64,000 bases of DNA, taken from the NCBI GenBank assembly GCA_965178125.1, contig OZ237768.1, positions 124,001 through 188,000 of the forward strand. The letters are read 5' to 3'. A program made the translations under genes and the position numbers. This DNA is from Bilabrum cf. latius. Taxonomy: Eukaryota. Below the pieces are notes generated by a model that was not told the origin of the DNA, did not search any database, and saw only the letters and a list, made by a program, of their open reading frames with translations. Shown one piece after another: positions 10,201-59,000 of the stretch (the stretch's first letter is position 1; each line of letters opens with the position of its first letter).

Positions 10201-13200
10201 GACGAGGATGATGACGATGAGTATGATGCAGGGCCGTGCAGCAGGGTGCACAGCGGGAGGGGGAGTCCCGTGGGTGATGAGGCTGCTGCTAGGCACGGCA
10301 TTGCAAAAGCTCACCTGGGCGAGAACAAAGGCTAGGACGTGGAATAGGAGGGGTGGGGCGAGATGCCCACCGCTGGGCGCGCAGGACGACCTGACCGACC
10401 GTCTGCAGCCCCCGGCACTGCCGTCAAGAGCAGGAACAGGAACAGGAACAGTCGGACAGACGGACCCAGGATCCTGTCGTTTGCCAGCGGGCCTCACACG
10501 CAGCCTCGGCCTCGGCCTGTCCCTGTCCCTGGTCCTGGTCCTGCGATTGGGTCCTCGCCCATTGGCCGCCGGGCCTTGTCTGGCTCGATGGGTCCACTGG
10601 GGGGAGGGAGGGGTGCCGCCAGGACCCTGCAGCTCGGCGGCCTGCCAGTGACTAGCAGCAGCGAGAGAGGGGGAGAAGAGCGGGCGGCGGTGAGTAGGTC
10701 CATTCGGCGCATTGACACGGCCGCGTTGGAGCTGGAGGCCGAGGCTGCCCTGGGACTGCGGGGCGTCGGCAGGGGCAGAGGCAGAGGCAGGGGCAGGAAT
10801 GGCAACAGAGAGGCGCATGCACATGCCCAGGTTGGAATGGACGATTCGGCTCAGTTCGTGGACAGCGATGAAGCAGGAACTGACTCTGATTCCGAGTCGG
10901 ACAGCGGCACGGAGGGCGGGCCAGAGCAGGAGCAGGATCAGGACAGCGGTAATGACCCCGGGGTGCTGCACGTGCGACGAACGGCCTCGGCTTTGAACTG
11001 GAGCGACAGCAGCGACAGCGATGAGTCCTCGGGTGACGACCGGGAGGAGGAGGAGGACAGGGACAGGGACAGCAATGACAGCCCGATGAGCGCCGAGAAC
11101 GCCTCCGAGGGCGACGCTCTGTACATGGCCCCCGAGCTGCTCGCGGCGGGCAACGCCTCCCCCAAGGCCGATGTGTTCTCCCTGGGCGTGCTTGCCTTCG
11201 AGCTCGCGTGGGGGCTGAGGGCGCCCGCCGCGGGGGATGCGTGGCACGCCATCAGGGAACACAGGCTCCCGCCCATCCCCCCCGTGCTGCACCGGTGCAG
11301 GACGCGGGTCCTCGCCAATGCGGTGCGCGCCATGCTGCACCCGGACCCGTCCAAGCGGCCCACCGCCAGGCAGATCTAGCAGCACCCCCGCGTGAAACAC
11401 GCTGCCGCCTCGTGCTGCGCGCGGCCAAAGCACGCTTCTGGTCCAGGGCCCGGAGGCAGCGGCGGGTTCACGCCTGCCCAGAGCTAGGGCCAGGGCCAGA
11501 AGCAGGCTGCTTCCGGCAGCGGCGGCCAGGACCCCTCGGGGTACTTCAGGCTTGCCCCCGACAGGGACCTCGCGGTGCAGGACCGGCAAGGCCAGGACTC
11601 CCTGCATGCGCGGGGGGCGCAGCTGGGCAGATCTGCTTCGTGCGGCGCTGATGCGCTCGAGGGTCCCTTGGCGGCTCTCCAGCAGCAGCAGCAGCAGCAG
11701 CAGCTCCAGATTGACGTCAAAGGTGCCAACCAGGCCGCTGCCGTCGCAGGGGGCGCTTGGCACCAGAGGGCAGGGTCTGGCGCGGCCAGCCAGGGGCATG
11801 CGATGCTGTCCCCCACGGATCTGGTCACTCCGGTGGGGCAGCACGAGGGCAGCGGGGCGGCGAGGGTCCCTTGGCTCGGCGCGCTTCCGGCTGCCATCCT
11901 GGAGGCTGCACCCGCTGATGGTGGTCGTGGCAACCAGAAAAATCAGAAAAATTAGAAGGCTGCTACATGCAATGGTGATGACGTGACCATGGCGAGGGGT
12001 GGCGGGACCTGGGCGAGATCGGAGGAGGGGGAGGAAGCCGGCAGTTGGGGCGAGCTGGCGCAGCGATAGTAGCAGAAGCAGCCCTCGATCGAGTTGCCAC
12101 CAGCTGGCGACAACCCGTGGTCGCAAGCAGGCGCAAGCACGGACGGGGGCAAAGGCTCTGCATGGTCACCCCTCCCGAAACACCCCCGCAAGCGCAGGCA
12201 GATGAGCGGGGGCCGGTACGAGGCGTCCTGCAGCCCCGCCGCCAAGGCCCAGGGCAGGCGCGCAAGGAATCGCCGGGGGTCTGTGGCGATGGAGGCAGCA
12301 GAGGACGGGGAGAGTGAGAGTGACGAGTGGGGATCCGGCGTCAACGAGGAGGATCGCGAGGCTCCCCGTGCGCAGAGGCATGGAGGCGACCCCGAGCAGC
12401 AGCGGATGCGCGACCCTAGGGCGAGCCTGTGGCCAGCAGCCGTCCCACCCACCGCCCGCAAGCCCCAAGGGACTGGAAGAATGCGACTGAGGCCGCAGAC
12501 GGGGACGCCGATCGGCATGCCACAGCCCCGAGGCGCAGCACCTGCTGGCCCGCTGGCACACGCGATCGACTTTGGGGACGGTGACAGGGTGCATCGCACT
12601 GCAGCTCCGTCCAGGTCCGCTAGGACGCCAGCCATCATTGGGGCCGGCCGCAGTCCTGCTCCTGCTCTAGCGCCCTCATCCTCCTCCTCGTGCTCCTCCA
12701 GGTCCTCCCAAGCCTAGTCTTTCCCATCGTCCTCCGCGTCCTTCACCCCCCGGCATGGGGGCAGCGGCGCGCGCAGTGACAGCGGCCGGGGCCAGGGCCA
12801 GGAGGCCCCTCCCACCACTGCCGTGAAGAGAGCCAGGCCGCTGGAGGAGCAGGGCAGGGTGCTGGGGCCCAGGTCACCTCAGGCTGCTGCCAACAGGCCC
12901 GCGCCCCTGACCGATGGAAAAGCGAGCGATGGTGGTCGGGGCATGGGCATGGGAGGGAGGGCACCCCGGAGACTCGACTTCAACTAGAGGATGGGCACGG
13001 CCAGATCAGGCGTGATACGGATGGAGGAGGATGAGGACGATGATCAGGTCGCGGGCCAGAGCGCGGGAGAGGGAGAGGGAGGGTCTTCGCTCGGGTCTAG
13101 CTGGACGGAAAGCAGGGGGCTGAGGGGCGGCAGTGGGGATGGGAATGGTAGCAGTTGGGATGCGGAATCGTGTGGGGTTGGGTCCTTTGCTCGCCGCGGG

Positions 13201-13940: not shown

Positions 13941-14181
13941 TTTGAATAGGGAAGTCCTAGGTGACGAATAATGTCAATTTCAAATCAATTGACTTGTCGT
14001 AGCAGGAATCCACAAAGTACCACGCAACACCGTGACCTAATCGAAGGGGCGAAACCCGTCAACCATTCCACACGCTACCGCCGGCGCCACCGGTCGACAA
14101 GCCGCCATGCTAATCAAACTGAGCCACAAGGAGTTGATTCGGCAGCCATCTAGAAAACTTCTAACTGGCTGCATCCATCGC

Positions 14182-19478: not shown

Positions 19479-19911
19479 GGATCACCTAGCCGTACCCACC
19501 CTTTCGCGCCCTCTTCCAGCGGAACCCTCCCCTAACAACTAAACAGCAAACTTTCTCGCTTCGTTTTTGCGCTGGTCCGCTCGTTCACGGTTGATTGTGC
19601 TCATCACTTCCAGCATTGATCCGAGCCGAGCGCGCGGTTCAAACTTTTGAATTATCAGAACCCCCGAGCGCCGGACCATTCGTGCCACTCTTACCTAAAA
19701 ACAGAGGGGAAAAGTAAGTATTATTAAAACAGAACACCTCTTAAGTTATTCTGTTCCAGAAACACCCACTGTGTCCGTATTGTGTTTCATCCCTACGGGA
19801 GATGGCGGGACCGTCCCGGCTGTTGCGTAGGCACCTGTACGGTGCCGACTATTGAGCCTTGTGCTCGACCACATAGAATGTGTTCCCAGATTGACAGCTT
19901 TCGTCACTCCG

Positions 19912-27922: not shown

Positions 27923-28589
27923 TGAGGGCAGCCTTTGCCCTTTTCTTTGACTGCTCGTTCTATGCAGGTCTTGCAAAAGCGGTGCTAGCACTGCGAGTGC
28001 GGCGCAGGAAGTTCGATGGTTCCACAGATCGGCAATCCTGGTCACAGGCCAAGTCCCAAAAGTGCACATAACAACTAGTGAGAGACATTGTAACATGAAT
28101 TGAGGTTTAACGAGGATGAACAGCGTGCAGCACACCGTGATTTTGCTGGCTGCTCACTCCTTTTGTTACTCTGCAATCTGTGATCACATCCATGCAAATA
28201 GGGCACTAAACTAGATCCTAGAGCTGTGACATCTATATGTAAGCAAGATCATCGAGAGATACCGCCATAATGTCTGCAGCTGCCGCTTATTCTAGCTTGT
28301 CAAAAGTACAAGCTCGAGATCGCCGATTATGCTCATTCATCTTCAAACTAGCTGGCCCGCGGTTGCAACCGGTTGCAGCCAGTAAGACCTTTCAGTGGCC
28401 TACCTGAAAGCGTCTAGTCAAAAATGTAGTCGTCTTCCAGGCTGTTGTAGTATTCATCATCCATATCTCGATTTCGTGTAAGAAAAGTTGGAGTTGATGC
28501 TCACACTTTGAAATTATCACCATCGCAAGGCCTGCAGAATCAATCGGTTGTCCTAAGATCAGTCGCAGCCTGGGATTTGCCTATCACAA

Positions 28590-31500
28590 ATGCTAATGAA
28601 GGAGTCTATGCGAGCCATTAAACGGCCTAGGTAGCTCGTGAGCGCTGAGCAGGCTCCAAAGAAAGGAGTGCGTCCGACCGATGCCGCGAACGGGACATCG
28701 CAGGGCTTGGCTGCAGGCTCACAGTAGGATGTTCCCACAGATTACACCGCCCCTGGAGTCGCAGTGTCCTTCTACTTCAGACAAGGGGGGTTGCCTGGTG
28801 CAGCTGTTTGCCTCAAAGATATTCTTGCCCATGCCGATTCCCCAGGTACCCCAGAATCTCCTGCTCGGCTTTAGGTCGCTACGCGGGCATTTGTGCGCCA
28901 AGCCCTTGCCAGCAACGATTTCGCGGCAGCTTGCACTGCGGTCTGTTTGATTCCAAGCAGCGAGCTGCAACTCGCAGACGTGGCCCCTTTGGTCCGGGCG
29001 GCGGGTGCGAGCGGCGCCGGCAGGCAGCTGCTCCAGCTACTGGAATGGGCGCGTGGCTCGGCCTCGTTGGCAAACATGGGTGCCGTAGCCCGCGCTGGTC
29101 TGCAGGCCCGACTGGCGGCGCTGAGCCCCGCCGCAGCGCAGCTGGCTGGATCGATGGAGACTGGAGCTAGACCTGGGGCGGTGGCGGTCGTGCAGACCCC
29201 CGTCGAGCCTGCCTCTCACTCGTCACACGGCCAAGAGCTTGCCGCCACAGTGCTGAATCTACTGCAGCCCGTCGGCAAGGACTTGGCCGTACTGGCGCAG
29301 GCTGCCTCTTCGCCGGAGCAGGCGGCGATGGCGGCAGGGCGGGTGGGAGCGCGGCTGCTCGAGGTGGGCGCGGCGGGGCGGCGCGGCGGCTCGAAGGATC
29401 AGGAGAAGGATCATGGGTTTCAAGGGCAGCTGGGGGCAGGGGACAGGGGTCAGGTGCGGAGGGGGCTCCGTGGGATCCTGTCGGGCATGGCGCGGGCTGC
29501 TGGGATTAACAGAGCCACCAGGAATGGCAAGGGCGGGAGCGAGGCTGTGGGTGCAGCGGATAGAGAGGGTGTGAGGGGGGCGCATTTAGGCCGCGATGCA
29601 GGCGCAGGGGGTGTCGTGTCTCTGGTTGGGATCGAGCGGGAGAGGAAGGGCCTGCCGGGTCTGGACCTGGTGGCGAGGATGGGTGCATTGCACGCTGGTG
29701 GAAGCACGCCGGCCTAGACGGAGGCCATGAGGCCAGCCAGAGGGGCGTGGCCGCCGCACGGGTACATCATGGCCAGGGGCACCTCGGCTGGACTGTGGCG
29801 CTCGAGTGAGACCCAGCTGGAAGCGAGGGGTCTCAAGATAGGCCCTGTGTTCCCTCCGGTGAGGGTGCGCAGGAGCGGGGCAGCAGCCATGCGGGAGCAG
29901 GTGGGAGACGGGCAGCTGCTGCGGGAGGGCGAGCGAGGGAACACGCCAGGGAACACGAGGTCCTGGGCTCACAGGGTCGTGGGCGGGCAGCTGCCAGCGG
30001 AGGCTGCGCTGGGCCGATTTGAACGAGTGGCGGCGACCTACGGGACTCGCGACTCGGGCTATGGTAGCACAGCGGAAGGGTCCGCATCGTAGGGGCTGCA
30101 AGCCGAATTGGAGCACGGATTGCGCGGAAGCGGGCAGGCACAGGGGCAGGGGTCGCGAGAGGGAGAGGGAGAACAAGCCGCTTTGGACCTTGGCAGCGCG
30201 CTGCAGGCCGTGGAGCGGGAGGCTCAGGGAACACGAAACGCTTCCAAGCGTACCGATGGCGCTGGCACCGAGGCCACCGTGGTGCACCGCATTGCGGCGC
30301 GCAGGCAGCGCCACATCGCCTCCAACCGGCTGCTGGAGGGCCTGGGCAAAGGGTCCGATGCCTTCAGCGCCGCGCTGGACGCAGTCCTTGGGCGGGTGTC
30401 TGCGAAATCAAGGGCGAGCGCGGGTCTTCTACGGGCAGGGAACAAGGCAGCCGCCTCTGCGGTGGCCGGCATGATGGGCGAGGAGGCCCTGGCGGGTGCG
30501 AGGGGGCTGCGGCTGGGGAGCGTCGAGGCGATGGCGGGGCAGCTTGCGCTGAGAGAGAGGCTGCTGAGGTCGAGGCTAGGGCAAGGGCAAGGGCAAGGGG
30601 CGGAGGCTGGGGGTGCTAGCCAGGGGGTGGGGAGTTAGGGCACCGGCACCGGCTCCGACCCTTCAGACCTGTTGGGGTCGCTGCCCAGCGGCATGCGCAG
30701 TGTCGCGGCCGCGTGGGGCCAGCACGGCCCGGTTGGCTCTGCTCCTTCATCCTCGCCCTCCTCTTCCTCTTCCTCTTCCTCTTCCTCTTCCTCTTCCTCT
30801 TCCTCTTCCTCTTCCTCTTCCTCTTCCTCTTCCTCTTCCTCTTCCTCTTCCTCTTCCTCTTCCTCTTCCTCTTCCTCTTCCTCTTCCTCTTCAAATCCGG
30901 AGTGGAGGCGCGCCCGGCTGCAGCCCGCGCCGCAGTCCAGTGCATCTGAAGCTAGCGAGGGCTTCCGTCTCGCTGCCCGCCGAAGAACAGCCCTCGCCGA
31001 GTCTGCGCGCTTGTGCACTGCACTGCGGATCGGCGAGGAGAGCGGCCGCATCGGGACGCTGGCGGTGTAGCTGCTGGAGAGCGGGGAGCAGCTGCCTGGG
31101 GAACACGGGGATGGGCGGGAGCTGCTGGAGCAGCCCCTCCCGCGGCACCTCGCTGCCACGGCCCGTGGTGTCGTCCCCGAGCTGACAGACAGGGACGTGC
31201 GGGCGCTGGCTCGCCGTGTTGCAGCTGCTGTGCTGCGGCAGGAGAGGGAGGGCACGGTGGGTGCTGACGAGTGGCTGCAATCCCAGGATGCGGGCGAGGA
31301 GCTAGGCGCCGGGGCCGCAGGGGGCCAGCGGGAGCGAGATGGTGCGGGCCGCGCGGGAGCACCCGGTGATGACGGCAGCGGGGGTGCAGGCGGGAGATAC
31401 AGATTCAAGGGCTTGCGCGAGGCGGCAGATGCAGTGGGCTCGAGCACGTCAGAGCTGAGGAGGGCGGCGCAGCAGGGGGCGCGGCCCGCCGGTGCTGTGC

Positions 31501-34500
31501 AGCTGCACGCGGTGCTGGACGGCCTGGCAGTGGACCGTGAGGTGGAGGCGGTGGCGATGCAGGTGCACCCCGATGTGCTGGCCGCGCGCACAGTAGCACG
31601 GTCGGTGGACTGGGGCTTCGCAAAGGCTCTGCAGAGCGCGGGCGTGCCACCCGAGGGCAAGGGGGCGGGCATCGAGGGACAGTTGACGGTGCAGGAGGAG
31701 GGCAGTGGGCACGGGGATCAGCTGGTGCTGCCCCCCGATTCCATCCGTTTGCCCCGCAGTCGCACCGGTAGGGCCCTCCTGACGGGCCTGCCTGCCTCCC
31801 ACGGTGACCTGCTTGCCGCCTGTGCCAGCGTGTGGCGATGTGCCCTGGATCTGGGGCTGGACCTGGGGCCCGAGGCGTGGGAGGACACTGCCCTCGCTCT
31901 CAGCCGCGGGGGCGCCCCTGTCGAAGACATCGACTGGGTGCGGAGGGCGGCGCCAGACGGGGCCTGGCGATCGGGGCGGCTGGCGCGAGCCCTGGCCCGG
32001 GCCCAGCTGGAGCACGAGGCGGGGCCCAATCACCACGCGGCCATGCAAGCCCTCGAGATTGCGGCCAGGAGGACGGCCCGTAGGACACAATAGAGGGATG
32101 CGGGGCGGAACGATGGGGAAAAGGCTGTTCAAGAGAGCGAGGTCAGCGATGGTCAGAAGAGGGACGTTTCGGTGCAGCGGGCTGCCGTGGACAGCAGCAG
32201 AGATGCACTGATGGCGGTGCTGCAGACGCACCTGGTGGTGGGTCCCGATGCGAGAGCCACGATGGGGCGTGGAGGTCCAGCAGGTGCTGCCGCAGTGGGC
32301 ATTCGGACGCTCGAGTATGCACTGGAGGCCGGTGTTCCGTTGCCGACGCGGGTGCTAGCAGCTGCGATCCTGCAGCTGCCGCAGGTGTCCGCTCCTGGTC
32401 ACCAGCAGGAAAATACGTCCGTCACTGGCCTTCTCCAAGCGCTCGGGATGCCACAAGCAGGCGAAGAGCCCTTCAGCAGCGACGGTGGTGGTGGCCGCGT
32501 GGCTGCAGCCGACGCACGGCTGTCTGTGGACGACCTCTGGGGTGCCCTGCGGCCGACGCTTCTCCGCGTGCTGGCGGGCAACCGCGGCGATCAGGTTGCA
32601 ACCGGTGACATTGTTCCCTCCGATTTGCCCTCGGCCGCCCCCGGCTCGGAGTCTGTTCCCTCGGGCAGGGAGCTGGGGCGCGCGGCCCGTTTGGCACGGG
32701 CGTGCTTCGCGTCTCTGGTGGTGGAGGGGAGGCACTCGGAGGTGGAGGAGTTCGTCCAGGAGCTGGTGGGGGCTGCAGCTGGGCGCCAGGGGGAGGGTGC
32801 AGTCGATGCTGGGGAACCCTTAGAGAAGCACCGCCGCAGGGCACATCGGCGGGTCGCGTCTGCCGCTGTGAGAAGCCTGGCGGAGGGGGGGCACCTGGCC
32901 GAGGCGCTGGCACTGGCAGGGCGGTAGGCAGGAGGAGACAGCGGGTATGCCCCGGGTGGTAGAGACGTGGCCGCGATGATACAGGCGGCCGCAGGGCCCG
33001 ACGCGCTCAAGACGGGTCTGGCCATCGCGCGCCATGCCTCGTTAGCTCTGGGCGCCCGGCTGGGAGACGGGCGCGAGGTGGTGCAAGCCCTGGTGGATGC
33101 CGCGCAGGAGTCTGCGTCCTACGGGACACCCTCAACGGCTGATTCCCGCGGTTCGTCCTCCTCGTTCTCCTCGCTGGGGGCTCTTGGGATCACGGCCGAG
33201 GCACTGCGAGAGGCCATGACGAGCTCGAGTGCAGCAATTGCGTGTGAGGGAGGCGATGCAGAGGAAGATGAGGAGCGCGATGGTCTGCTGCAAGAGGAGG
33301 AGGAAGAGGAGGACTCCGCCGAGACACCAGAGAGGGCGCTGGCTCGGCTGGGTGCCTCGATCGCAGCCGACGCCCTGGCAAGCACCAGCACTGACTCCGG
33401 CACCAGAGCTGGGAGGATTGAGGCCCCTGGCGCTGAAGCCTCGGGCGCCGAGGGGGGGCTGCAGCTGTCCTCCATGGCTCGATTGCTGGGCGCGGATCCG
33501 TCGGCGTGTTGCCTGGAGCTGGACACGGCACTCGACCGCGTCCTATCCGGCGGAGAAGACCACTAGCAGGCACCATGCAGGAGCGCTGCTCCCCTGTCGG
33601 ACGTCGACGGCGCCCTGGCCATCGCGCTGGAGGTGCTGCAGGAGGCCGTGGCGCTGTGGCCGGTGAGCAGGGCGAGGCACGGGGCGGCCTGGGGCGTGCA
33701 CGCGCGGAGGGTGGAGAGGCGGAGGGTCTACGACGGCCGGGTGTCGGGGCGGGTGGTGCGCGCGCGCCTGCGACGTGCAGAGTACCACAGGCACGAGCGG
33801 AAGGAGCGAGCAGCGGCTCTAGACCCGCACTCGAGCCTGGCACACGCAGATGGCAGCTTTGGGCCGGTGTGGGCCTTTGGGCCGGTCGAGATGCAGAAGA
33901 GGCTGGATGCTCCCACTGGGATCGACCTGCAGCGCACTGCGGTGGGCGCCCGTGCCATGCCCGTGGGGGAGCAGAGGGCCAGGCGGGCTGAGGCGCGGGC
34001 GAGTGCCGGGGTGTGCCTCGCAGGGGGCGATAGAGAGATGAGCGTGCCCTTTAACAGCAACATGCTTCCTGCCAGCGGGCCGGTGGATGGAGCAGGAGCA
34101 GCAGCAGCAGCAGCAGCGCTTGATGCAGAGTCGGCTGGGAGGGCCCGTCGCCTGGAGCAGCAGTCGGCAGAGGCGGGGCTGCAGGGTGTTGTAGACGAGC
34201 ACGAGGAGGACGGCAGCAGTGGAACTGACGTGGTGGGGGTGAGGGCAGGTGGGTTGGGCGGCTCTAGCCAGATCCCTGAAGGTGGGGAAAGTGAAGGTGG
34301 GGAAGTTGACAGCAAGGCTGCCAATGCAGCTGCACAGGCGACCGCCCTGCGTCAGAGGCTGCTGCAGGACGCGCGAGCAGCGCGGGACCGCAACGAGGCC
34401 GCCGAGGTGGCCGCGGCAGAGGCCCGTCGGGCGCGTCAGGAAGCGCTCCGGGAGAGGCGGCTCCAGGCGCAGGGCAGGGCGTCGGGGGGGAATGGGAGCA

Positions 34501-35393
34501 GTGCTGCAGGGGGGGCTCAGGGCGGGTCTGCCGGCCAGGAGGGGCCTATCCAGGGAGCAGTCAGGCTGATGCTGCGGGCCGCTTCGCAGGTCCTGGGCCA
34601 AAGGACCGGGACAGACGGTGGTCAAAGTGGAGCGAGTGGGCAGGGCAGCGCCTCGTAGGCCAGCAAGGTGCAGGCTGTTGCAGATGGCAAGAGCAGCGAG
34701 AAAGGTGGCGGGGATGCCTCGGAGAGCGTCGGGCACGATGTGACCGATGACGGGGGAGATGCCAACGAGAGTGGGGTGGGTGGTGATGCGGCGGTGCGGG
34801 CAAGGGCGGTGGAGCTGCAGCAGGGCCAGGCGCTGGAGGATGAGTTTGAGGGGGCTCTGAGGCGCGCAGCGATGGGCTGGGCTGCGCATGATGCCGAAGG
34901 TCCGAAGGAGGGCAGCGTAACGCCGGGACTTGCAGGAGATACCGACGTCGACTGGGACCGACTCATGGCTCTGGCAGCCACTGCCGATGTATCGGCGAGG
35001 AGGGCCCGTTTGGTGGGGGGCTAGAACCATGGGGCTGCGAGGGATCACCAGGCCTGGCTGCAGCGGCTGCAGGGGGCGGGGGCGGGCGCCGTGGCGGGTG
35101 GGAACGCCGGCGTTGGAGTGGTGCGTCGCGAGTACCGGGGCAAGGGCCAGCGCGGGCGTGAGCTGGGGCAGGCCCGTCGGGAGAGGGAGAGGAGGGAGGC
35201 AGCGGAGGTGTTAGAGGGGACGCTGGTGGGATAGGCGGCCACGCGGGCCATGCGTGCTGCTGCGAATCGCCGGTAGGAGGCCACTACCGCTCGCAAGCGG
35301 AGGGCCCGGTGGGCGCCGGCCGGTCAGCGGCATTCGGGCTCGCCTTTCGTGGGCGATGGCAACGGTGCGTCTCCAGGGCTTGGGAGATAGTGA
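28590..35393 (+). CDS. Very large Ala/Gly/Arg/Leu-rich hypothetical protein, about 2260 aa
   Basis: Nine consecutive track ORFs from 28893 to 35024 lie in one frame separated only by TAG (about 15 in total). The frame opens at ATG 28590 and closes TAG-TGA at 35388-35393. No domain recognised. Confidence 0.7.
30759..30890. repeat. (TCCTCT)n microsatellite, about 22 units, encoding poly-Ser
   Basis: Perfect hexamer array, in frame within the 28590..35393 CDS. Confidence 0.95.
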
Positions 35394-39661: not shown

Positions 39662-39805
39662 GCTGTCGATATTTAGCGCGCTGTAGAGGAAAGACAAACT
39701 TGCATTGAAATCGATAACGTGCTGTTATTGAGTAAAATCAGTCTACCTGCCGTTGACCAAATCGTACTACTGACTTTCCACTACCAGAAAGTCCCACTTT
39801 TCAGC

Positions 39806-42800
39806 ATGGCAGCTTATGCTAGTGAAGATGACTGGTCAGATGCGGCGTACGTGAGATGAACTTGCGATTTCCTCCGATGTAGAGCTCCGTTCTCAGTTGC
39901 TCGCAAGCCTCGCGCCAAGATGATCGCAATCCATCACGGCCACCAACACATTCTTCGCAGGATGAAGACGCGAGCGACGATGACTTTGATGTAGAAGAAG
40001 ACTTCGATCCAGCGCCAAAAAAAGCGGCAAAGGGAGGAAAGAAAGCTGCAGGGGGCGGCGCAAAGAAGAAGGCTGCTCTCGCAGAAGTATCCTCGAACAC
40101 TGCACCCAAATCCTCGAAAGGAGGACGAGGTGGCAAGAAAACCATCGAGTAGATATACTAGAAAAAGACCCAGCTGGAACATATTCTGCTGCGGCCGGAC
40201 ACTTACGGTGAGACATCAAGATGTCAACGAGAAGCAGCTGCTTGTGCTCGCTTGAGCTTGCCGCTCATCTCCTCAGCGATCCCCCATCGGGAAACAAAAA
40301 TCCATAGAATCCTTTCTATACATTACAATAGATACTTTCTTGCACTGCAGTCGGGTCCATGAACAAGGTGACGCAGCCCATGCACGTCTGGGACGATGCC
40401 AAGGGAGCCATCGTGCAACGCTCCGTCACGTTCGTGCCGTCCTTGTACAAAATTTACGACGAGATCCTCGTGAATGCCGCGGACAACAAGCAGAGAGATC
40501 CCAGCATGGACGCAGTGAAGGTGGACATCGACCAGGAGGAGGGCTCCATCTCGGTGTGGAACAACGGTGAGCGAGCGAGCACTGGGGCTCCAATGGTCGA
40601 CCGTCCCGAGCCCAGCCGATGGCCCGATCCCATCGCTCGCACCTCGCGGTCATTTCATTGTCGGCAATCATTTCCACCCCATCGGACCGCGCCTCTATCC
40701 CGCCCATCCCCGCAGGCCGCGGCATCCCCGTTACGATGCACAAGGAGCACGGGGTGTACGTGCCAGAGCTCATCTTCGGGCACCTCCTCACGTCCAGCAA
40801 CTACGATGACTCGGAGCGAAAAGTCACGGGTGGCCGCAACGGGTACGGCGCCAAGCTCGCCAACATCTTCTCTGACGAGTTCACGGTGGAGACGGTGGAC
40901 AGCGAGCGAGGGCTGCACTACAGGCAGGTGTTCCGAGACAACATGCAGGACAAGGGGGAGCCGGAGATCACCGAGCTGAAGGGGGGCAAGCAGAAGAAGA
41001 AGAAGGCCAGGTCCCCGGGCCAGGACTTCACGCGCATCACCTTCAAGCCGGACTTGAAGCGCTTCAAGATGGACAAGCTGGACGACGATACCGTGGCGCT
41101 GCTCAAGAAGAGGGCATACGACATCGCGGGCGCCACGCACAAATCCGTGTCGGTGCACCTGAACGGGACCAAGATCGACGTGAACGATTTCAAGAGCTAC
41201 GTTGACCTGTATATCCAGGACGACGAGGCCCCTCGGCTGTTTGAGAACTGCGGGGACAGGTGGGAGATCTGCGTGTCTCTCAGCGACGGGCAGTTCGAGC
41301 AGATCTCATTCGTCAACAGCATCTGCACCTACAAGGGCGGGCAGCACGTCAGCCATGTGGTGGACCAGATCGCGCAGGAGGTGTGCAAGGTGGCCAACAA
41401 GAAGAACAAGGGCGTCAAGGTGAAGCCGCACCACGTCCGCAATCACATGCGGGTTTTCGTAAACTGCCTCATCGAGAACCCTACCTTCGACAGCCAGACC
41501 AAGGAGAACATGACCCTCAGGCCGCAGTACTTCGGCTCCCAGGCAGAGCTGGCCGCCAAGTATGTCAAGTCCGTGGTGAAGTGCGGGCTGGTGGACCGCG
41601 TGCTCTCCTGGGCCAAGTTCAAGCAGGTCTCTGAGCTGAAGCGCAAGGGCGGGGCCAAGAAGCAGACCGTGCTGGGCATCCCCAAGCTGGATGACGCTAA
41701 CCTCGCGGGCGGGGCCAAGGGGGAGCAGTGTACGCTCATCCTGACAGAGGGTGACTCGGCCAAGGCGCTGGCCGTGTCTGGCCTCAGCGTGGTGGGGAGG
41801 GACCGCTTCGGGGTGTTCCCACTCAAAGGCAAGCCCCTCAACGTGAGGGAGGCCACCCACCAGCAGATCCTCAAGAACGCTGAGATCCAGAACGTGGTGA
41901 AGATCATGGGCCTGCAGTTCGGCAAGGAGTACACCTCGGCCAAGGGTCTCAGGTACGGGCACCTTCTCATCATGGCGGATCAGGACCATGACGGGTCCCA
42001 CATCAAGGGGCTCATCATCAACCTGATCCACCACTTCTGGCCCTCGCTGCTGCGAGTGCCAGGCTTCCTGCAACAGTTCATCACGCCGATCGTCAAGTGC
42101 CGCAAGGGCGGCAAGAGCCTGTCATTCTACACTATGCCCGAGTACGAGGCCTGGCGCGAGCAGACCAACGGGGGCAAGGGCTGGAGCATCAAGTACTACA
42201 AGGGTCTGGGTACCTCAAACTCGCAGGAGGCCAAGGAGTACTTCAGGGACCTCGACGCGCACGTGATCGATTTCGTGCTGGACGACGAGAAGGAGAAGGA
42301 TGGAGCCAAGGGGGGCGCGGCTGCCATGTCGGACAGCGACGAGGACGAGGACGAGGACGATGACTGGGAGGGTGCGGGCCGCGCGGCTGCCAGCGGAGCT
42401 GGTGCCGACAGCAAGTCCGCGCCGAAGGCTAAGGCTAGCAGCGAGGACCTCATTGACCTGGCTTTCAGCAAGAAGAGGGCGGACGACCGCAAAGCCTGGC
42501 TGCAGGCGTACCAGCACGGGACCCACGTGGACTACGCCGTGGAGGCGATGAAGATCTCCGACTTTGTGAACCGCGAGCTGATCCTCTTCTCGAGGGCAGA
42601 CAACGTGAGGTCCGTGCCCTCCGCCATCGACGGGCTCAAGCCATCGCAGCGCAAGGTGCTGTTTGCTTGCTTCAAGCGCAACCTTAGGAAGGAGATCAAG
42701 GTGGCGCAGCTGGCCGGGTACGTCTCGGAGCAGTCCGCCTACCACCACGGCGAGGCTAGCCTGGCAGCCACCATCACGGGCATGGCCCAGAGCTTTGTGG

Positions 42801-45800
42801 GGTCTAACAACATCAACCTGCTGGTGCCCTCGGGCCAGTTCGGTACCCGGCTCATGGGCGGCAAGGACGCCGCCAGCCCCAGGTACATCTTCACCAAGCT
42901 GCACGCGATCGCCCGCCTGCTCTTCCACCCCGATGACGACGCGCTGCTGGCCTATCAGGAGGAGGACGGGCAGACCATCGAGCCGGAGCACTACGTGCCC
43001 GTGCTGCCTCTGGCCCTGGTCAATGGGGCGGACGGCATCGGGACGGGGTGGAGCACCTTCGTGCCCAACTACAATCCGAGGGACGTGATCGCCGCCCTGA
43101 GGGACCTTCTGGCCGGGAGGCAGCCCAAGCAGCTGCGGCCGTGGTACAGGGGCTTCAGCGGAGAGGTCATCGGCAAGGCGCCCAAGGGGTCGGGGCGAGG
43201 GGCCGGTCGGGCCGTGGCTGCCGTGCCCATGTCGGACGATGGCGGGGCTGCCGCCGGGCCAGTGGCTGCGGCCCAGGAGCCCGAGCCCACGACGTTCATC
43301 TTGCGGGGCAAGGCCGAGCTGAACGACAAGGGCGACCGCTTGGTGGTCTCTGAGCTGCCTGTGAGGCGGTGGACCTCGGACTACAAGCAGTTCCTGGAGG
43401 AGCTGACCCCCCAGGCCGAGAAGGAGCGAGAGAAGGGCAAGCCCAAGGGCAAGAAGGGGGCCAAGGGTAAGGGGGCGGCCGCCAAGAAGAAGGCCACTGC
43501 CAAGGGCAAGGGGAAGGGGAAGGGCAAGAAGGGCGCGCAGGCAGACATGGAGGACGACGAGGACGAGGACTTCGACGACTCCAAGTCGGTCGCCTCCACC
43601 ACCTCCACCGTGGCAGAGTCGACCTCCACGGCACTCGTCAAGGAGCTCAAGGAGGGCCACACGGATACCACCGTCCTGTTTGACCTAGGTCTCACCCCTT
43701 TCGCGCAGAGGGCGCTCCGGACCAAGAGCGAGATCATCAAGACGTTCAGGCTTGACGCGCAGGTGTCTGTGGGCAACATGCACCTATTTGACAGGGACGG
43801 CCGCATCGCAAAGTACAAGTCCCCGCTTGACCTCCTGAGGGAGTTCTTCGTCGTCAGGATGGAGCTCTACGGCAAGCGCAAGGCGCACATCCTGTCGGTG
43901 CTCCGCGAGGAGCAGCGCATGCTCCGCGCCAAGGCCCGTTTCATCACCGAGGTGGTGGAGGGGTCGCTGGTCGTGTCCAAGCGACCCAAGGCGGAGCTCG
44001 TGGAGGACCTCGCCGAGCGCGGGTACCCCGAGTGCGAGCCGTCCAAGATCAAGCAGATGAGGAGCGGGGCGCACCAGCCCGCCAAGCAGACGGACGACGA
44101 AGAGGAGGAGGACGATGGGAACAAGGCCAGCGGCACGGTCAGCCGCACCGGCTACAACTACCTGCTCGGTATGCCCTTGTGGAACCTGACCCTGGAGAAG
44201 GTGCAGGAGCTCAGGGCGGAGGTGGACGCCAAGGACCAGGAGGTGATCGAGCTCGAGTCCACGGCCCCTGAGCAGCTGTACATGCGGGACCTGGACGCGC
44301 TCGAGGGGGGTCTCACGGAGATGGACGGCGAGATGGCGGACGCAGAGGCGGACGAAGCCAAGGCGAGGAGGTCCTACCAGAAGCAGGCCGGCAAGGGGAA
44401 GAAGGGCAAGGCGGGCGGCAGGAAGGGCGCCCTCAAGCGAGCCCAGGCAAAGGCAGGAGCCAAGAAGGCAGTCAAGAAGGCTAAGCGAGCCGCTGATGAT
44501 GATGACGAGGACGAATTCGACTCTGATGCATCGGTGGACGAGCTTGAGCTCGAGCTAGCAAGCGATGGAGAGGACAGCGACTTCGATGAGGAGGACTTTG
44601 CGCCCGCCCCGAGCAGAAGCAGGAGCAAAGGGGCTCGTGCGGCCCCAAGGCGGGGCGGCGGCCGAGCAGCTGCCAAGAAGGCCGCTGCGAAGGTATCTGC
44701 CGTGGCCACGCCCATGGAAGACGATGGCGACAGTGATGGGGATAGCGAAGCCCAGTCCCGTCCCGCCGCGCTTCCTGCCAAGTCGAAGCAAACTGCGGCA
44801 TCCAAGGGCAAGGGCAAGGCGGCGGCTCGTGTCGCCGTGCAGGCAGCCTCTCCCGTGCCCCAGGCCCGCCCCACTACTGCCGATGACTCAGACAGTGACA
44901 GCGATTCGGACGAGGAAGAGCCCCCGATCGAGACGATGAGCCTGGCGGCGCGACTCGCCATGCGGACGGGCGGCAGCTCCTCCTCTTCTGCTTCTGCATC
45001 CAAGGCCTCCTCCTCGTCGTCTTCGTCAAGTTCCAAGGCTGCGTCCTCGTCTGCTGCTGCTGCTCCCAAGAGCAAGAGCAAGCCGAAGAAGGCAGCTACC
45101 AAGAAGGCCAAGAAGGCAGCGCCTGTCTGGGAGGACAGCGACGATGAGGATGACCTTGAAGCGGACGACTTCAGTCTGGACGAAGACGACGACGATTTCG
45201 AGCCTGCGCCAAAGGCCAGGGGCAAGGGTGGCAAGGCCGGGGCCAAAGCCACAGCAAGCCGACGCAAGCAGGCCAAGGGCGCAGGGACAAAGCAGGCCGG
45301 TGCGGGCGCGGGCAGGCGCAAGGGAGGGCTGGCTGGCATCAAGCGGCCCACGATTTAGGCGAGGAGGGAATCGCTCCTGGATGACGATGACGACATGTCC
45401 GCCATGGCCAGTCCGGGAGTGGCGATGGACGCTGTGGTATCGCCCAAGAAGCCCCCGGCCAAGAAGAGCAGAGCAGCAGCAGGTGGCAAGAAGAAGGGCG
45501 GCAGCAAGGCGGCGGCCTCAAAGGGCAAGGCGAAGGGAGGAAAGAAGACCGGCAAGGGGGGCAGCAGCCGGGCTCGCAAGTCGTACGACAGCGACGCCGA
45601 GGAGGACAGCGACGAGGGCGAGTCGTTCGGCGTGGGCAGCGAGGAGGACGAGCTCGAGGTGGCGCCCAAGCCGAGGGCCCGGGCCAGCAGGAGGGCAGCG
45701 GCAGCCACCCGAGCCAAGTTCGTGGAGCTGAGCGACGAGAGCGGGAGCGAGGATGGGGCGGATAGCGATGACGGTGAGGCAGAGTGGGACGATGGAGATG

Positions 45801-45814
45801 ATTCCGATTTCTGA
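39806..45814 (+). CDS. TOP2: DNA topoisomerase II (eukaryotic type IIA), 4 exons
   Basis: Motifs KKTQLEHILLRPDTY, EILVNAADN, GGRNGYGAKL, LILTEGDSA, PLKGKPLNV, MADQDHDGSHIKGL, DGLKPSQRK, YHHGEASL and ASPRYIFT (catalytic Tyr). Introns 39851..39960, 40208..40350 and 40567..40715. In-frame TAGs at 40150, 40159 and 45356. Ends at TGA 45812-45814. Confidence 0.97.
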
Positions 45815-46030
45815 GGCATCCGTGGATGTGCAGCATACTACCCAATTATAGGAGGGGCACCGGAATGAAGTGGTCGGCAGCCAGAAGCCAGCATTGAGAC
45901 CAGACGTAAGACATAAATGCATGACAACTTGCACCATTGACAAGATGAATTCTATCAGATTGAGAATATCAGTTTGAGTAATTAATCCTTTTGGATCCCA
46001 GTAGTTCGAGTCTAGCCATTAAACTAGCCC

Positions 46031-47452
46031 TCACTGGAATGAGTCGTGCATGACCATCCGCCTTCGCCTGGGCGACTTGCGGGCTGAGGCTGGTTGCCGC
46101 CTCCTACTGGACGCAACCATGCCCCCTGCATCCCCTCCACCGTGTTCTCCTCCCCAATCAGCCTGCGACTGCGCCTCCTCGCCCACATACGCAGCACCTC
46201 CTCTTTGACTGCCCTTACCAAAGTCCACGCCCGGTCCTCCGTCCACGATGCCATCGTCCAGCTCACCAGCGCGCTGCTCCTCCATCATCGTGGACAGGAA
46301 GCGCGACACCGCCAGAGTCTCCCCAAGGTCCCCACTCCCATGCCCTTGAACTTGCCCTTGTCCTGCCACCCTGCTGCCCTCGCCCCCAGCACCATGCATG
46401 CCGCCCCACTCCTGCTCCATGTCCATGGTCCCATCCCCGCCCCACGGCGACCTTGCACCCTGCTAGTGCATTGCACCCTGCTAGTGCATTGCACCCTGCT
46501 AGTGCATTGCACCCTAGTCCATCGCCGTCTACTAGCGCCCTGCAGATACTCCACTGGGAACACCCGCCCCGTGCTGCACCCGCGCCTAGTGTGCCGGTAC
46601 CTCCCCGCTGGCAGGGAACAAGCCGAATCCTGCACCTCCCTCTCCCACTCCCACTCCCTCTCCCCTTCCCACTCCCTCCGCTCTATGGGCGGCGGATGTT
46701 GACCGGTCAGCGCCAGAGTCGCGTCCGAGGCCCGAGGCAAATCGAACGTGGGGGCCTTGATGCCGCTGTGGATGAGCTTCCCTTCCTTCCCATTCCTCCT
46801 CCTCCTCTTCCTCCTCCTCCTCACCGCCCGCAGTGCCCCGCAGGTTGAACAGCTCCTCCCGGTTGACCTGCTGCTCCTCGCCAGGGCCCACCAGGTCATC
46901 TGGGCGCAGGGGGGCACGGTTGGCAGGTTCTACGGTAGGCTCAGAACCCCATTCCTGAAATGAAGCCTCGTGGGAGTTCCAGCCGTCCTCAGGCTGGCCC
47001 GGAGCGTCCACACGCCCCTCAGAGCGTGCGTTTCGGTCCCGGGAGCCAGACCGGCTTCTTGCTGGAGATGACCCTGGCGACCTAGCAAACGTGTCAGATC
47101 CTTTCGACGTATCGTTTGGCGGGATTGCAAACTCCAAGACGGGGTGCAGCAGTGCCCAACCTACCAAAACCATCACCATCTCTGTCAGCACCCCCACTGC
47201 GGCACGCCCAGCGAAAGATATCGTGCCAAGCGGCGTAAATAAAAAGTTACCCCTATTCATTATACACCAAAGTAGCATCAGGGACCCGGCAATGACAGGA
47301 AGAACGCTAAAATTGCTGCTAGGCTTTGCTGTAACGCCGGCTAGTCTAGCGGCCGCGCCTGCTGAGGCCAGGATGGCAATAACAGCGCATACACCGGGCA
47401 AATGGCTCTCTAACACAGGCTGAATGGCTGCCAATCTGGCGTCCATGGTCAT
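46031..47452 (-). CDS. Hypothetical membrane protein with about 3 N-terminal hydrophobic segments
   Basis: ORFs 46586..47452 and 46031..46426 share a frame joined by several TAGs and end in TGA. The N-terminus is hydrophobic. Confidence 0.6.
46452..46517. repeat. 18-bp tandem repeat (ttgcaccctgctagtgca), about 3.5 units
   Basis: Visible directly; in the coding frame each unit reads ATG CAC TAG CAG GGT GCA. Confidence 0.85.
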
Positions 47453-54315: not shown

Positions 54316-55931
54316 TCAGTAGGACCTGCCCTCCGCCGCTCTCTCGTGGATCCGCGCCGAGATTCTTCTGAGCGCCACGGCCGCCTACTTGAGCGCGTCA
54401 AAGGTCCCGCTCTCCTGCGCGCTCTTGGCGCTCAGATGCAGCACTCCATGGGTCTAGTCGATGTGGCCAACGAGGCGGCCGTCCAGGATCAGCTGCGCCA
54501 CGAGCTGCTCCGCCTCGGTGCCCTCCACGTCTAGTTCCTTGGCAAGGAACTCAAGCCTGACCACCTTGTACGGCCGCACGATCTGCAGCACCACCTGTCC
54601 CCTGAAGTTCCTCATGAGGGGGGCGAGGTACTCCAGCATGAAGGGATCATCCTGGATGTGCGCCTTGGGGTCTGCAAGCACGCGCTGGAAGCCGTTGATG
54701 TCGTTCTTGTCGAATGCTCGCCGAAGCTGCACCATGGCTGTGATCTGGGGGTCATTCTCGTACGCCTTTGCCTCCTGGGAATCGAAGGGGTTCACCTCGA
54801 TGCCGGCGATCATGTTGGCCAGCAGAACGCACTTGAGGCACCGCACGGCCCTCGTGTTACCCGCCGCCTGGTAGTTCTTGAAGGACTCGAAGAACTCGTC
54901 AAAGGCCTGCTTCCAGTTCTTCTAGGTCATGTGCATCTCACCGAACGTCTCCCTGATCGTGCCCATCACCCTCGGGTCCGCAATGGCCACTTTCTGAAGC
55001 TTGTTGACAGCGTCGTAGTACTTCCGGATCGCGTCGAATTTCTTGGTGATTCCGCAAAGCTGGATTCTGAGCGCGTACACGTCCATAAGGTACGTGGCCT
55101 TGGCCTTGTCGTCCTCTCCCGCGGGGGTGCGGCAGCTGTCGTGCAGTGCGTCCACGGCTTCCTGCAGCTTGGTGGCGTCCCTGTGCGCCACGTGGGAGCG
55201 AGCCAGCTTGAGCTACGTGGAAAACCACAGCCTCTCGTTGGTTGCTTTCAAGTGGACGAGCGCCTTTTCGTACATGGCGCTCTGCAGGTCGACATCATCC
55301 GCCGTGGATACCTCGTCCAGGATGCGATCCATCGCGCTCGTGCCATCGTTACTCGTCACCAGCGGGAGCAAACTCATGAGCTACGTGAATGATTCAGAGG
55401 CCAACTCTTTTCGATTCAATTTCACGGCAAGTACCACGATCTCCTTGAGGGCCTGGAATCGGCTGCGAGCACATGGTCAGTCGGTACACACACACATCCA
55501 GGCGAATTCGGAGGGGCAACGGCAATTGCTCAGGCACTCCCGCCCGCATGCGAAATATCTTACTATTTGTTGCTATCTGGACTCAATTTGGACTCCTCTT
55601 CGACCACGCTTTGGAACAGGGTGATGGCTTTGTCGGCGTCGCCTCGTCTCAGCACGTCCTCGCCTTCGTAGTAGTTATTTTCGATCTAAATGCTGGGGTC
55701 ATCCTCCTCTCTGCGAAAACAAAAGAAATGACACACGGAATACGCCGAGCTTATGTGCAAAAAAAATACGCTGTCGTTGCAAACGCAAGATGGGCTCGAT
55801 CCGAGAACGTATTGGGTATCGATGCCTCACGCTGCACCACCGTCCCCTTCCCCCCCATCATCGTCACTAGGGTACTCGATCTCTGAATCTCCATCATCAC
55901 CGTACTCGTACTCTTCTTCATAGTCAGACAT
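54316..55931 (-). CDS. CSN2: COP9 signalosome subunit 2 (PCI domain), 3 exons
   Basis: MSDYEEEYEY...IENNYY, FQALKEIV, NERLWFST*LKL, VYALRIQ, PRVMGTIRE, FFESFKNY, INPFDSQEAK-like EVNPFDSQEAKAY, IVRPY, LILDGRLVGHID*. Introns 55830..55711 and about 55563..55463. Six in-frame TAGs; ends in TGA. Confidence 0.92.
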
Positions 55932-56088: not shown

Positions 56089-59000
56089 ATGGCATCCGCC
56101 TCTGGCGGGCCCACTGGCGGGAAAGCTCCAGCCTCTGGTGCTGGTGGGTAGGACTCTTCGCTGCGCGGACTGGCCTCGTCCTTTCTGTCTCGTTTTTCTG
56201 GAAAGGGAGAGGACGGCAAATCCCCAGGAAAGAAAGGCAAAACAAAGCCAAAGGTGGATCCTATGGCTGGACTAACCCCCGAAGAAAAGGCGGAAAGTGA
56301 GACCAACCGCACCCAATCGTTGAGTTGCTATGCGCTCGTTTTTACTAGTTCTACCTTGAATCATATTGGTGGCAAGCGAGACTGAGTATGTGCATGCTCC
56401 TTTGTATTACCTCGCGCAGGGCGGAAGGCTCTAGCAAAGCGAGAAGAGAGGCTCATCAAGCTGTTTGCAAACTTCGAGCTGCATGGCGGGCCGTACTAGA
56501 CGGATGTCGTGCTTGCCAAGAGCGAAGGCCGGCTCATCGGCGGGCTGGCAGACGACGAACTTCTTAAAATGCAGTGGTATCGCGCGGGTACAGGAAGCGA
56601 TGGGGGTTTCACGGAGATCAAGGGCGTGCACGGCGGCTTCTACCAGCCGTCTGCCGAGGACGTCAGCTGCCGCCTGCTGTGCCGCGCCACCAATACGGAA
56701 AACGAGGGCTAGTCAGGATTCGGAGAGTGGGGTCCCCTGGTCCTCGACCCCGATATCCGTGCCCGGGCCCTGGAGGTGGCAGCCCGCCGGCGCGTGGTCT
56801 TCGAGGTCGAGAGGAGCAAGGAGCACGACCAGAAGAGGCGCCTGTCCATCGAGCCCGACGGGGCCATGGTGCTAACGGGCCCGGGGTACTCCGAGATCGG
56901 CTCTCTCAAGTCCAAGGCCTCCCGTGGGGTGCACTTGGAGCTGGACCCTGTCAGTGTCACGGAGCTCCTTCTGACGGTCCCTCGCACGGGTGTGGAGTAC
57001 GTCCCCGAGCTGGAGAAAATGAAGGTGGTGCCAACCAAGGCGCTCAACAAGAAGAAGTTCTTCAGGGTTAGGCTGCGGGCCCAATCCAACGAGGAGAGAG
57101 ACGTGCTGGCGCTGGTGCTGTGGAAGAAGTGCGGCCTGGACAGGGGTCGCTTGCTGGACGATGAGGACGAGGACGACGAGGACGACGACAGGGAGCTGGA
57201 GTAGGAGGTGCATGGTGTGGCCAGTAGTGCTGATGCTGATGCTGATGATGATGATGGGGAGGCAGGGGCGGCGGCGGGGGGTGCCTCTGGCGAGGGGGAC
57301 GATGGCGAAGACGCAGGGCGAGCAGGCGATGGTATGAAGGCCGAGGACGAGAAGGGTGCTGGTGCTGGTGATGGAGATGGAGATGGCACAGCTGGTGATG
57401 GAAGCATAGAGGCCGACGTGTCTGAGAGTGGTGGCGGCGGTGGTGACGATGTGGATGCATAGGAGGACAGCCCAGGCAAAGACAGCAAGTCTGGGGATGG
57501 TGGGGAAGACAGCCCAGGCAAGGAAGATGCTGGCGGCAGCAATAGCGACAGCGACAGCGACAGCGACGATGACGTGGAGCTGACGGCGGATGGACCTGCC
57601 GCAGGAGAGGCTGGACTGGTGGGCCTGGAAGACAAGGAGGAGGATGACAAGGAGTAGGACAAGATAGCGAATGAGGGATAGGACAAGATAGCGAAAGAGG
57701 GATAGGATAGAGGTGGCTCGGAAGAAGCAGGCGCAGGTGACGCAGCTGGGGATGTGGCAGGGGTTGCCTCTGGCGGAGACGACGGTGGGGGCGCTGAATC
57801 CAGCGGAGGCACTGCAAGTGGCAGCGCTATCGTCGGGGAGGATGGCCATGGGGATGCTAGCGAAGAAGGCGATGACTCTTCGCCTCATGCGAAAATAGGC
57901 AAGCCAGATAAGCCAGACGGAGACAGCTAGCAAGCCGACTCGGGCGCTGGCTCCGGGTCAGGCCCCGAACCGGCCTCGACGGAAGCAAGCAGTCCGCAGC
58001 AGGGGCAAAGTGGCTCGGCAGCCCATCCGCCAGCCGCTGCCACGGCCTCCCAGCAGGCCTCCAAAGAGGGCGAGCCCGCCTTAGTGGCCGAGGTCTCTCG
58101 GCTCCGCTCCCAGGTCCGAACCCTCCGTCAGCAGCTGCAGGATCAGTCCAAGCAGCAGGTCACCGAGCTGCGGGCCGCGCGAGACGGTCAAGACAGAGCC
58201 AAGCGGGCGCTGCGGCAGACCCAAGACAAGCTGGAGAAGGTGCAGGCGGAGGCGTCCAGCGGCAAGCGGGCCGTGGAAGAGTGCAAGCGGCTCAGGAGAG
58301 ACATCGAGAGGGCCAAATCGAGCCAGGCCGCGGGCCGAGAGGACCAGGACAGGGTCAGGAAAGAGGCCGCCAGCGCCAGGAAAGAGGCGCGGGCCATCCA
58401 GCAGACGCTCACCCAGGCACAGCGCAATCTGGCAGACACGAGGCGGCAGCTGGAATCGGCCCGAGGCCAGCTCGTGGCTGTGGAGGAGCGCGCGGAGCGG
58501 CTGCAGGGCGACCTCGAGCAGGCGCGCGAGGCCAGCGACTCCAAGTCCACGCAGATCAGCACCCTGAGGCAGGACCTGGATGCGGCGCGGGAGGCCGCCG
58601 AGGACTGCAGGGAGCAGCTCGCTCGCGCAAAGGATGACGCGGAGAGGGCGAGGGAGGAGGGGGAGGCGGACAGGAGGCGACTGAGGGCCAGTGAGCAGAG
58701 GGAAGCGGATGCCAACGACAGGGCGGCAGAGATGGAGGCACAGAGTGCCGCGAGGAAGGCGCAGGTGGACTCTCTTCAGAAGGACCTGGCAGCCGCCACT
58801 GGCAGGGTGCGGGAGGTGGAGAAGAGGTGCGACGTGCTGCAGGAAGAGAGGGATGCCATGCGAAGAGAGGCGGACACGCATGCCAGGAGCGCGGAAGAGG
58901 CCAGGAAACGAGCGGCAGAGGCAGACAAGGAGGCGGCAGCTGCGCTCGAGCAGGTGAGGGCGGCGCAGTCAGCCCAGGCGGGTGCCCTTGGCCAGGTCGA

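Follow-up and report, generated by a model that had tools for sequence, protein, structure and literature searches.

Introduction

Changes in the nuclear genetic code are rare, and changes in which UAG acquires a new meaning without UAA are rarer still. In the available parts of two sources (PMC5304391, PMC11687900), both UAR codons are described as encoding glutamine in ciliates, ulvophytes, hexamitins, Streblomastix and Amoeboaphelidium, and UAG alone as encoding glutamine in the fornicate Iotanema, in Protocruzia and in two phyllopharyngean ciliate lineages, leucine in the rhizarian lineage exLh and serine in the green alga Scotinosphaera; no stramenopile is named there among these variants. 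A search of open-access papers and bioRxiv, supplements excluded, returned no report of nuclear UAG reassignment in stramenopiles. Here, we analysed 64,000 nucleotides of contig OZ237768.1 (assembly GCA_965178125.1, positions 124,001 to 188,000 of the forward strand), the whole of which is hereafter called the window, and in particular its gene for DNA topoisomerase II (TOP2), whose reading frame contains TAG codons at 40150, 40159 and 45356. Judged from the sequences compared, these are very probably ordinary, minor Gln codons of an intact, spliced and expressed gene, and the change is of the kind listed as NCBI table 15 (UAG to Gln). The TAGs are unchanged in the mRNA, they stand at Gln positions of orthologues, and the codons that flank them are under purifying selection. 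Other genes of the window show the same TAG pattern and so, in the reverse comparison, does a close relative.

The window can be compared with each group of known variants. As in Iotanema spirale, Protocruzia tuzeti and the two phyllopharyngean lineages, UAG is a minor Gln codon; it makes up ∼8% of the Gln codons in I. spirale, compared to 104/752 in 14 other long open reading frames (ORFs) of the window and 3/66 in TOP2 (PMC5304391, PMC11687900). Sense UAA has left no sign in these table 15-type codes, as far as the same parts of the sources extend, and the window is alike in this respect (PMC5304391, PMC11687900). The main stop codon of I. spirale is UAA (PMC5304391, PMC11687900), whereas TGA accounts for all 13 stops visible in the window, where TAA was not observed as a stop. 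The lineage also differs from Iotanema, Protocruzia and the phyllopharyngeans, being GC-rich and stramenopile-like. The table 6 codes (most ciliates, Ulvophyceae/Dasycladales, hexamitin diplomonads, Streblomastix and Amoeboaphelidium) share with the window a stop-to-Gln change with UGA as the stop, and their mechanism, a suppressor-type tRNA-Gln together with an altered eRF1, is the one proposed below for the window; the window departs from them in having no in-frame TAA against 104 in-frame TAGs. In exLh and Scotinosphaera, nuclear UAG is uncoupled from UAA, as it is in the window (PMC5304391, PMC11687900), but the residue in the window would be Gln, with Leu and Ser found in 0/63 homologues at both TOP2 columns examined below. 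The code is of a known kind, and the lineage appears to be new.

An expressed TOP2 gene with in-frame TAG codons

The predicted product has the composition of a eukaryotic type IIA topoisomerase, in that a single chain combines ATPase/transducer, TOPRIM and DNA-gate (GyrA-like) domains. The Pfam domains DNA_gyraseB (PF00204), Toprim (PF01751), TOPRIM_C (PF16898) and DNA_topoisoIV (PF00521) were all detected in exon 4, the translation of which matched human TOP2A (6zy5_B) with an E-value of 0 and 1025 bits. The Tyr of its 'SPRYIFT' stretch aligned to position 805 of chain 6zy5_B; we take Tyr805 of human TOP2A to be the catalytic residue. Exons 2 and 3, scanned alone against Pfam, gave no match, and they align to the human ATPase N-terminus. 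The domain order is that of human TOP2A/B and yeast Top2, from which the window protein differs in its long low-complexity inserts, its long acidic/basic tail and the three Gln residues written as TAG.

The sequencing evidence came from four runs of two studies. Unspliced, colinear DNA was represented by X1 record 1 and X4 records 9 and 12. In contrast, X5 record 18 (5777 nt) is a spliced contig that corresponds to 39785-39850, 39961-40206, 40350-40565 and 40715-45963 of the window with 0 other letters, X6 record 23 likewise joins 40565 to 40715, and X6 record 22 begins at 39961 and ends at 40159. The exon limits (Table 1) were set by applying the GT..AG rule to the joints of these contigs, and the limits proposed for exon 2 in an earlier note on this DNA, 39961-40207, match the spliced pieces. 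X5 and X6 are not on record as RNA, and their RNA status was taken from the spliced contigs and from depth. In X5, the depth of intron-holding bins equals the exon share alone (for 39814-40027, 10.3, which is 104/214 of 21.2), and the 113 bases between the end of the neighbouring transcript at 39671 and the TOP2 contig have no coverage; for these reasons we infer that X5 is a transcriptome. Both TAGs of exon 2 are covered with 0 other letters by X1 record 1 and X4 record 9 (DNA) and by X5 record 18 (spliced). Since the spliced contig matches the window at every base, both TAGs are present unedited in the mRNA. The earlier note had pointed to a possible absence of exon 2 from the mRNA as an outcome that would speak against it, and the exon is contained in the spliced X5 contig. 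The X1 and X4 pieces listed did not include another long TOP2-like piece with a likeness of ≥90%, a level at which a diverged paralogue would escape.

Spliced, the ORF has 1868 codons; it begins at the first ATG, which lies 21 nt from the start of the contig, ends at the TGA at 45812 and is followed by a 3' untranslated region (UTR) that extends to at least 45963. Its Gln codons are CAG (60), CAA (3) and TAG (3), with no in-frame TAA. The GC content of third codon positions (GC3) is 0.81 past the third TAG versus 0.41 in the 3' UTR, and the coding signal therefore persists beyond this codon.

Exon 2 opens with an acidic/basic N-terminal stretch, which is followed by a conserved motif that holds two TAGs. 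Its codons start at 40141 (ACC), 40144 (ATC), 40147 (GAG), 40150 (TAG), 40153 (ATA), 40156 (TAC), 40159 (TAG), 40162 (AAA), 40165 (AAG), 40168 (ACC), 40171 (CAG), 40174 (CTG), 40177 (GAA) and 40180 (CAT), and the frame stays open to TAC at 40204, ahead of the donor G/GTGAGA. Direct reading thus bore out the string given for 40141-40207 in the earlier note. That note had placed two stops near the 5' end of the gene; both are there, and the C-terminal tail holds a third in-frame TAG that it had missed. NCBI table 15 translation leaves the exon 2 frame open. With TAG read as Gln, exon 2 (82 aa) retrieved ten PDB sequences with E ≤ 1, nine of them TOP2; the best match was human TOP2B (E 3.7e-06) and the tenth sequence was a lectin (E 0.026). 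The motif of human TOP2A/B reads S-V-E-R-I/V-Y-Q-K-K-T-Q-L-E-H-I-L-L-R-P-D-T-Y and is identical to the window over the 15 residues 3' of the second TAG. In the PDB alignment, the human proteins place Arg opposite the first TAG and Gln opposite the second.

Glutamine at the TAG positions of TOP2 orthologues

Homologous sequences were then compared at the two TAG columns, using the best 120 of 8000 scored TOP2 homologues. The LEH-IL-RPD-Y motif was present in 73 of the 120, the remaining 47 being mostly models with a later start, and a stricter form of the motif was present in 63. Among these 63, the first TAG column held Q in 43, E in 17 and K in 3, and the second held Q in 51 and T in 12. The Gln of 'YQK', described in the earlier note as highly conserved, is accordingly common at this position, although the 12 sequences with Thr show that it is not invariant. 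Trp, Leu and Tyr, which the note had argued against, occurred in 0/63 homologues at both columns. A scan of metagenome contigs for TOP2 returned 80 loci, 12 of which were examined and 10 of which covered the TAG site. Opposite the first TAG, these carried a Gln codon in six cases, Glu in three and Asp in one; opposite the second, nine carried a Gln codon and one carried Lys.

The closest relatives were the most informative. The nearest orthologue, L001, is syntenic (a TAF7-like gene precedes TOP2 on the opposite strand) and shares 86-89% identity; its codons at the two TAG sites are CAA and CAA, which supports the assignment of UAG to Gln made in the earlier note. The corresponding codons are CAA and CAG in L002 (67% identical) and CAG and CAG in L044 (65% identical). 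Over the 26 codons from 40129 to 40206, the window and L001 show, apart from the two TAG/CAA sites, 18 synonymous differences and not one that is non-synonymous; protein-level selection therefore acts on the TAG-bearing frame on either side of these sites. The comparison also holds in reverse, as the four in-frame TAGs of L001 TOP2 itself are all CAG in the window (4/4). L036 (91% identical) shares two of these four. Overall, TAG was paired with CAA or CAG at 6/6 sites between the window and L001 TOP2.

TAG codons in other genes of the window

The 14 other long ORFs of the window, comprising 13,977 codons, contain 104 TAG, 517 CAG, 131 CAA and 0 TAA codons, so that TAG accounts for 104 of their 752 Gln codons. 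In-frame TAGs occur in all 14, and Pfam domains above the curated cut-off were found in nine, TAG-carrying ORFs included.

The COP9 signalosome subunit 2 (CSN2) exon, which has five in-frame TAGs, matched human CSN2 with an E-value of 1e-78 in an alignment that spans four of them. Two close CSN2 sequences were compared at the TAG columns: P0121 (86% identical) has Q at 4/4 covered columns, and P0122 (83% identical) has Q at two of three, with Leu at the other. P0123, at 52% identity, has Q at 4/5. When log-frequencies were summed over seven TAG columns of TOP2 and CSN2, Q scored -10.8, E -18.8 and N -25.0. In a tandem repeat of a kinase gene, TAG replaces the CAG of the sister units. We read the observations as a UAG-to-Gln reassignment that is genome-wide, apparently without UAA.

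The lengths of the ORFs were also considered. Those of ≥500 aa number six under the standard code, 22 with TAG read through, 26 with TGA read through and seven with TAA read through; this statistic does not discriminate between the stops and was dropped as evidence.

Table 1. Location of the TOP2 exons, introns and in-frame TAG codons, and of two further TAG-bearing features of the window.
Feature	Position	Strand	Details
TOP2 exon 1	39806..39850	+	ATG 39806 is the first ATG of the contig; similar first exon in L001
TOP2 exon 2	39961..40207	+	phase 0 start; X5 record 18, X6 record 22; PDB alignment
TOP2 intron 2	40208-40350	+	GT..AG
TOP2 exon 3	40351..40566	+	spliced contig and GT..AG rule
TOP2 intron 3	40567-40715	+	GT..AG
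TOP2 exon 4	40716..45814	+	spliced contig; stop TGA 45812-45814
In-frame TAG no. 1	40150..40152	+	codon 79 of the spliced TOP2 ORF
In-frame TAG no. 2	40159..40161	+	codon 82 of the spliced TOP2 ORF; 'YQK' position
In-frame TAG no. 3	45356..45358	+	C-terminal tail, 152 codons ahead of the TGA
Kinase-gene tandem repeat	11929..11964	+	AAC CAG AAA / AAT CAG AAA / AAT TAG AAG
CSN2 exon	54319..55476	-	five in-frame TAGs, codons 32, 88, 185, 341 and 364

Alternative readings of the TAG codons

Several observations weigh against a plain UAG-to-Gln code. The count of 104 TAGs refers to ORFs taken from stop to stop, and some of these TAGs may lie in UTRs, introns or flanks. In 120 distant CSN2 homologues, a single TAG column of the five is mostly Q (106/120), the remaining four being mostly E, N, E and K; the CSN2 case rests on close relatives for this reason. 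In the TAF7-like gene, the three aligned TAGs of L001 face Thr, Arg and Gly, and hence Gln in 0/3, a comparison that we treated as uninformative because the protein is only 63% identical. TGA makes up ∼81% of the TGA and TAA trinucleotides of the window, so that 13/13 TGA stops would arise by chance with a probability of ∼0.07. The 2278-codon ORF at 28557-35390 has a TAG directly before its TGA (35388-35393). Finally, neither the window nor L001, L036, L002 and L044 yielded a tRNA gene with ARAGORN, and the window contains no eRF1 gene.

The alternative that survives best, although we consider it unlikely, is that UAG and UAA both encode Gln, as in NCBI table 6 (the ciliate, dasycladacean and Hexamita code), with TAA too rare to be seen in a GC-rich genome. 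UAR codons usually change together, with at least 13 independent coupled cases in the available part of one survey (Panek 2017, PMC5304391). TAA is indeed the rarest of the three stop trinucleotides on the + strand, with 165 occurrences against 425 of TAG, and it ends 0/13 visible ORFs (again a chance of ∼0.07). Against this, TOP2 contains no in-frame TAA, and neither do the 14 other ORFs, in which ∼26 should have occurred beside the 104 TAGs if their numbers followed the CAA:CAG ratio of 131:517. In the main gene frames, TAA is confined to the 5' flanks, where it lies 14-35 codons below the TGA that precedes it. Within the ∼16 genes of the window, UAA is apparently not a sense codon.

Slightly less probable again is a dual role, in which UAG would encode Gln inside genes and act as a stop near mRNA 3' ends, similar to the position-dependent codes of Condylostoma and Blastocrithidia. 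The TAG at 35388, the last codon before a TGA, may be a terminal Gln or part of a tandem stop and may reflect occasional use of TAG as a stop; moreover, true 3' ends are established here for only two genes, TOP2 by the RNA contig and CSN2 by homology. Against a dual role, both of these genes show coding signal or homology beyond their last TAG and reach a TGA, and TGA ends 13/13 ORFs whose end is visible.

It is very improbable that UAG encodes another amino acid. Glu would be the next best candidate, being frequent in distant homologues at three of the seven columns (17/63 at the first TOP2 column, 41/120 and 92/120 in CSN2). Other organisms have UAG-only codes for Leu and Ser, and Leu stands at one CSN2 column of P0122. 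The pairing of TAG with CAA or CAG at every window-L001 site in TOP2, within otherwise identical blocks, points instead to Gln, as do the unbroken Q in P0121, the summed scores and the CAG/CAG/TAG succession of the kinase-gene repeat.

We give next to no weight to the TAGs being real stops, whether in a pseudogene, in an untranslated upstream exon with translation starting at a Met in exon 3, or through inefficient programmed readthrough. The standard code does close the frame twice within 10 codons, and an in-frame Met lies downstream in exon 3. However, changes around and upstream of the TAGs relative to L001 are exclusively synonymous, exon 2 is part of the spliced mRNA, the 1868-codon frame is otherwise open and carries all TOP2 domains, TAGs stand at other conserved Gln sites of L001, and the other ORFs hold 104 in-frame TAGs. 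Assembly or sequencing error, or editing of UAG to CAG in the mRNA, is scarcely credible either, as no supporting evidence was found and no other letters were listed along the stretch in the four runs, including the three records that cover both TAGs.

Lineage, proposed mechanism and implications

Phylogenetic analysis of TOP2 grouped the window with P0004 and P0006 (SH-aLRT, the approximate likelihood ratio test, 99), inside a clade of 12 rows whose sister group is formed by 34 rows of oomycetes and ochrophytes; the union of the two received an SH-aLRT of 100 in a tree whose only outsiders were three green plants and one chytrid. In the CSN2 tree, the window, P0121, P0122 and Cafeteria roenbergensis belonged to one clade of seven rows, which had a support of 100 but in which long branches were flagged, and the closest named CSN2 is that of Cafeteria. 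Neither tree places the window with green algae or fungi. From these two genes, the organism is probably a non-gyristan stramenopile.

The standard code seems to be retained nearby. In L044 (GC 70%; 1-21935), two standard ORFs of 1752 and 2185 codons lack TAG altogether, where ∼29 would be expected at the rate of the window; L044 thus looks like a user of the standard code. L002 TOP2 has no in-frame TAG either. It seems from this that the reassignment is limited to the clade formed by the window and L001/L036. As a tentative scenario, which we regard as possible rather than established, an independent and recent UAG-only change to Gln may have taken place in GC-rich heterotrophic stramenopiles near Cafeteria, leaving UGA as in effect the sole stop and UAA disused.

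The decoder of UAG in such a system would probably be a tRNA-Gln whose anticodon, CUA, is one base removed from that of tRNA-Gln(CUG) and which would read UAG and not UAA. A tRNA-Gln(CUA) of this specificity is described for Tetrahymena in the available part of one source (PMC5304391). Termination at UAG by eRF1 would probably be weakened, leaving UGA to do the terminating. A strong GC bias, under which TGA may have become the usual stop, would probably have freed UAG for capture. The GC content of the window is 57-71% in 2-kb windows, with an N count of 0.

If the scenario of a recent UAG-only change is true, the clade would offer before-and-after genomes for the capture of a stop codon under GC pressure. 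A lineage with a genome, a transcriptome and near relatives that apparently use the standard code would be a good system in which to follow stop capture, the origin of tRNA-Gln(CUA) and the change in eRF1. Annotation under the standard code would truncate or split a large share of the genes of this genome, since in-frame TAGs are found in TOP2 and in every one of the 14 other long ORFs. The TOP2 models of relatives in the databases already look N-terminally truncated: the closest (P0002, P0003, P0005 and P0007) have the initial Met of the large exon as their first residue, lack the ATPase N-terminus and resemble gene calls cut short on contigs that contain introns. The existence of upstream TOP2 exons is demonstrated by L002.

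Other features of the window

Within TOP2, GC3 is 0.51 in exon 2 (39961-40206) versus 0.86 in exon 4 (40715-45355), and the low-GC3 exon 2, at the 5' end, holds two of the three TAGs of the gene. Upstream, ∼113 bp (39672-39784) separate the start of the TOP2 contig at 39785 from the RNA contig of the divergent, minus-strand TAF7-like gene, and this interval is probably a bidirectional promoter. The head-to-head order of the TAF7-like gene and TOP2 is also found in L001.

Two ORFs that lack a named domain contain short tandem repeats, which are in frame. At 46448-46540 on the minus strand, GGT GCA ATG CAC TAG CAG occurs three times with TAG at the same place, and at 57643-57714 the repeat GAG GGA TAG GAC AAG ATA GCG has TAG in every unit.

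A GH5 cellulase gene (14041-15627, + strand), the product of which has a signal-peptide-like start, neighbours a GT61 glycosyltransferase gene (17361-19481, - strand), and both carry in-frame TAGs. Many Gly/Ala/Ser low-complexity tracts were observed in the very long ORFs of the window without a Pfam match; one of the ORFs without a match, at 28557-35390 on the + strand, contains a run of ∼50 consecutive Ser codons.

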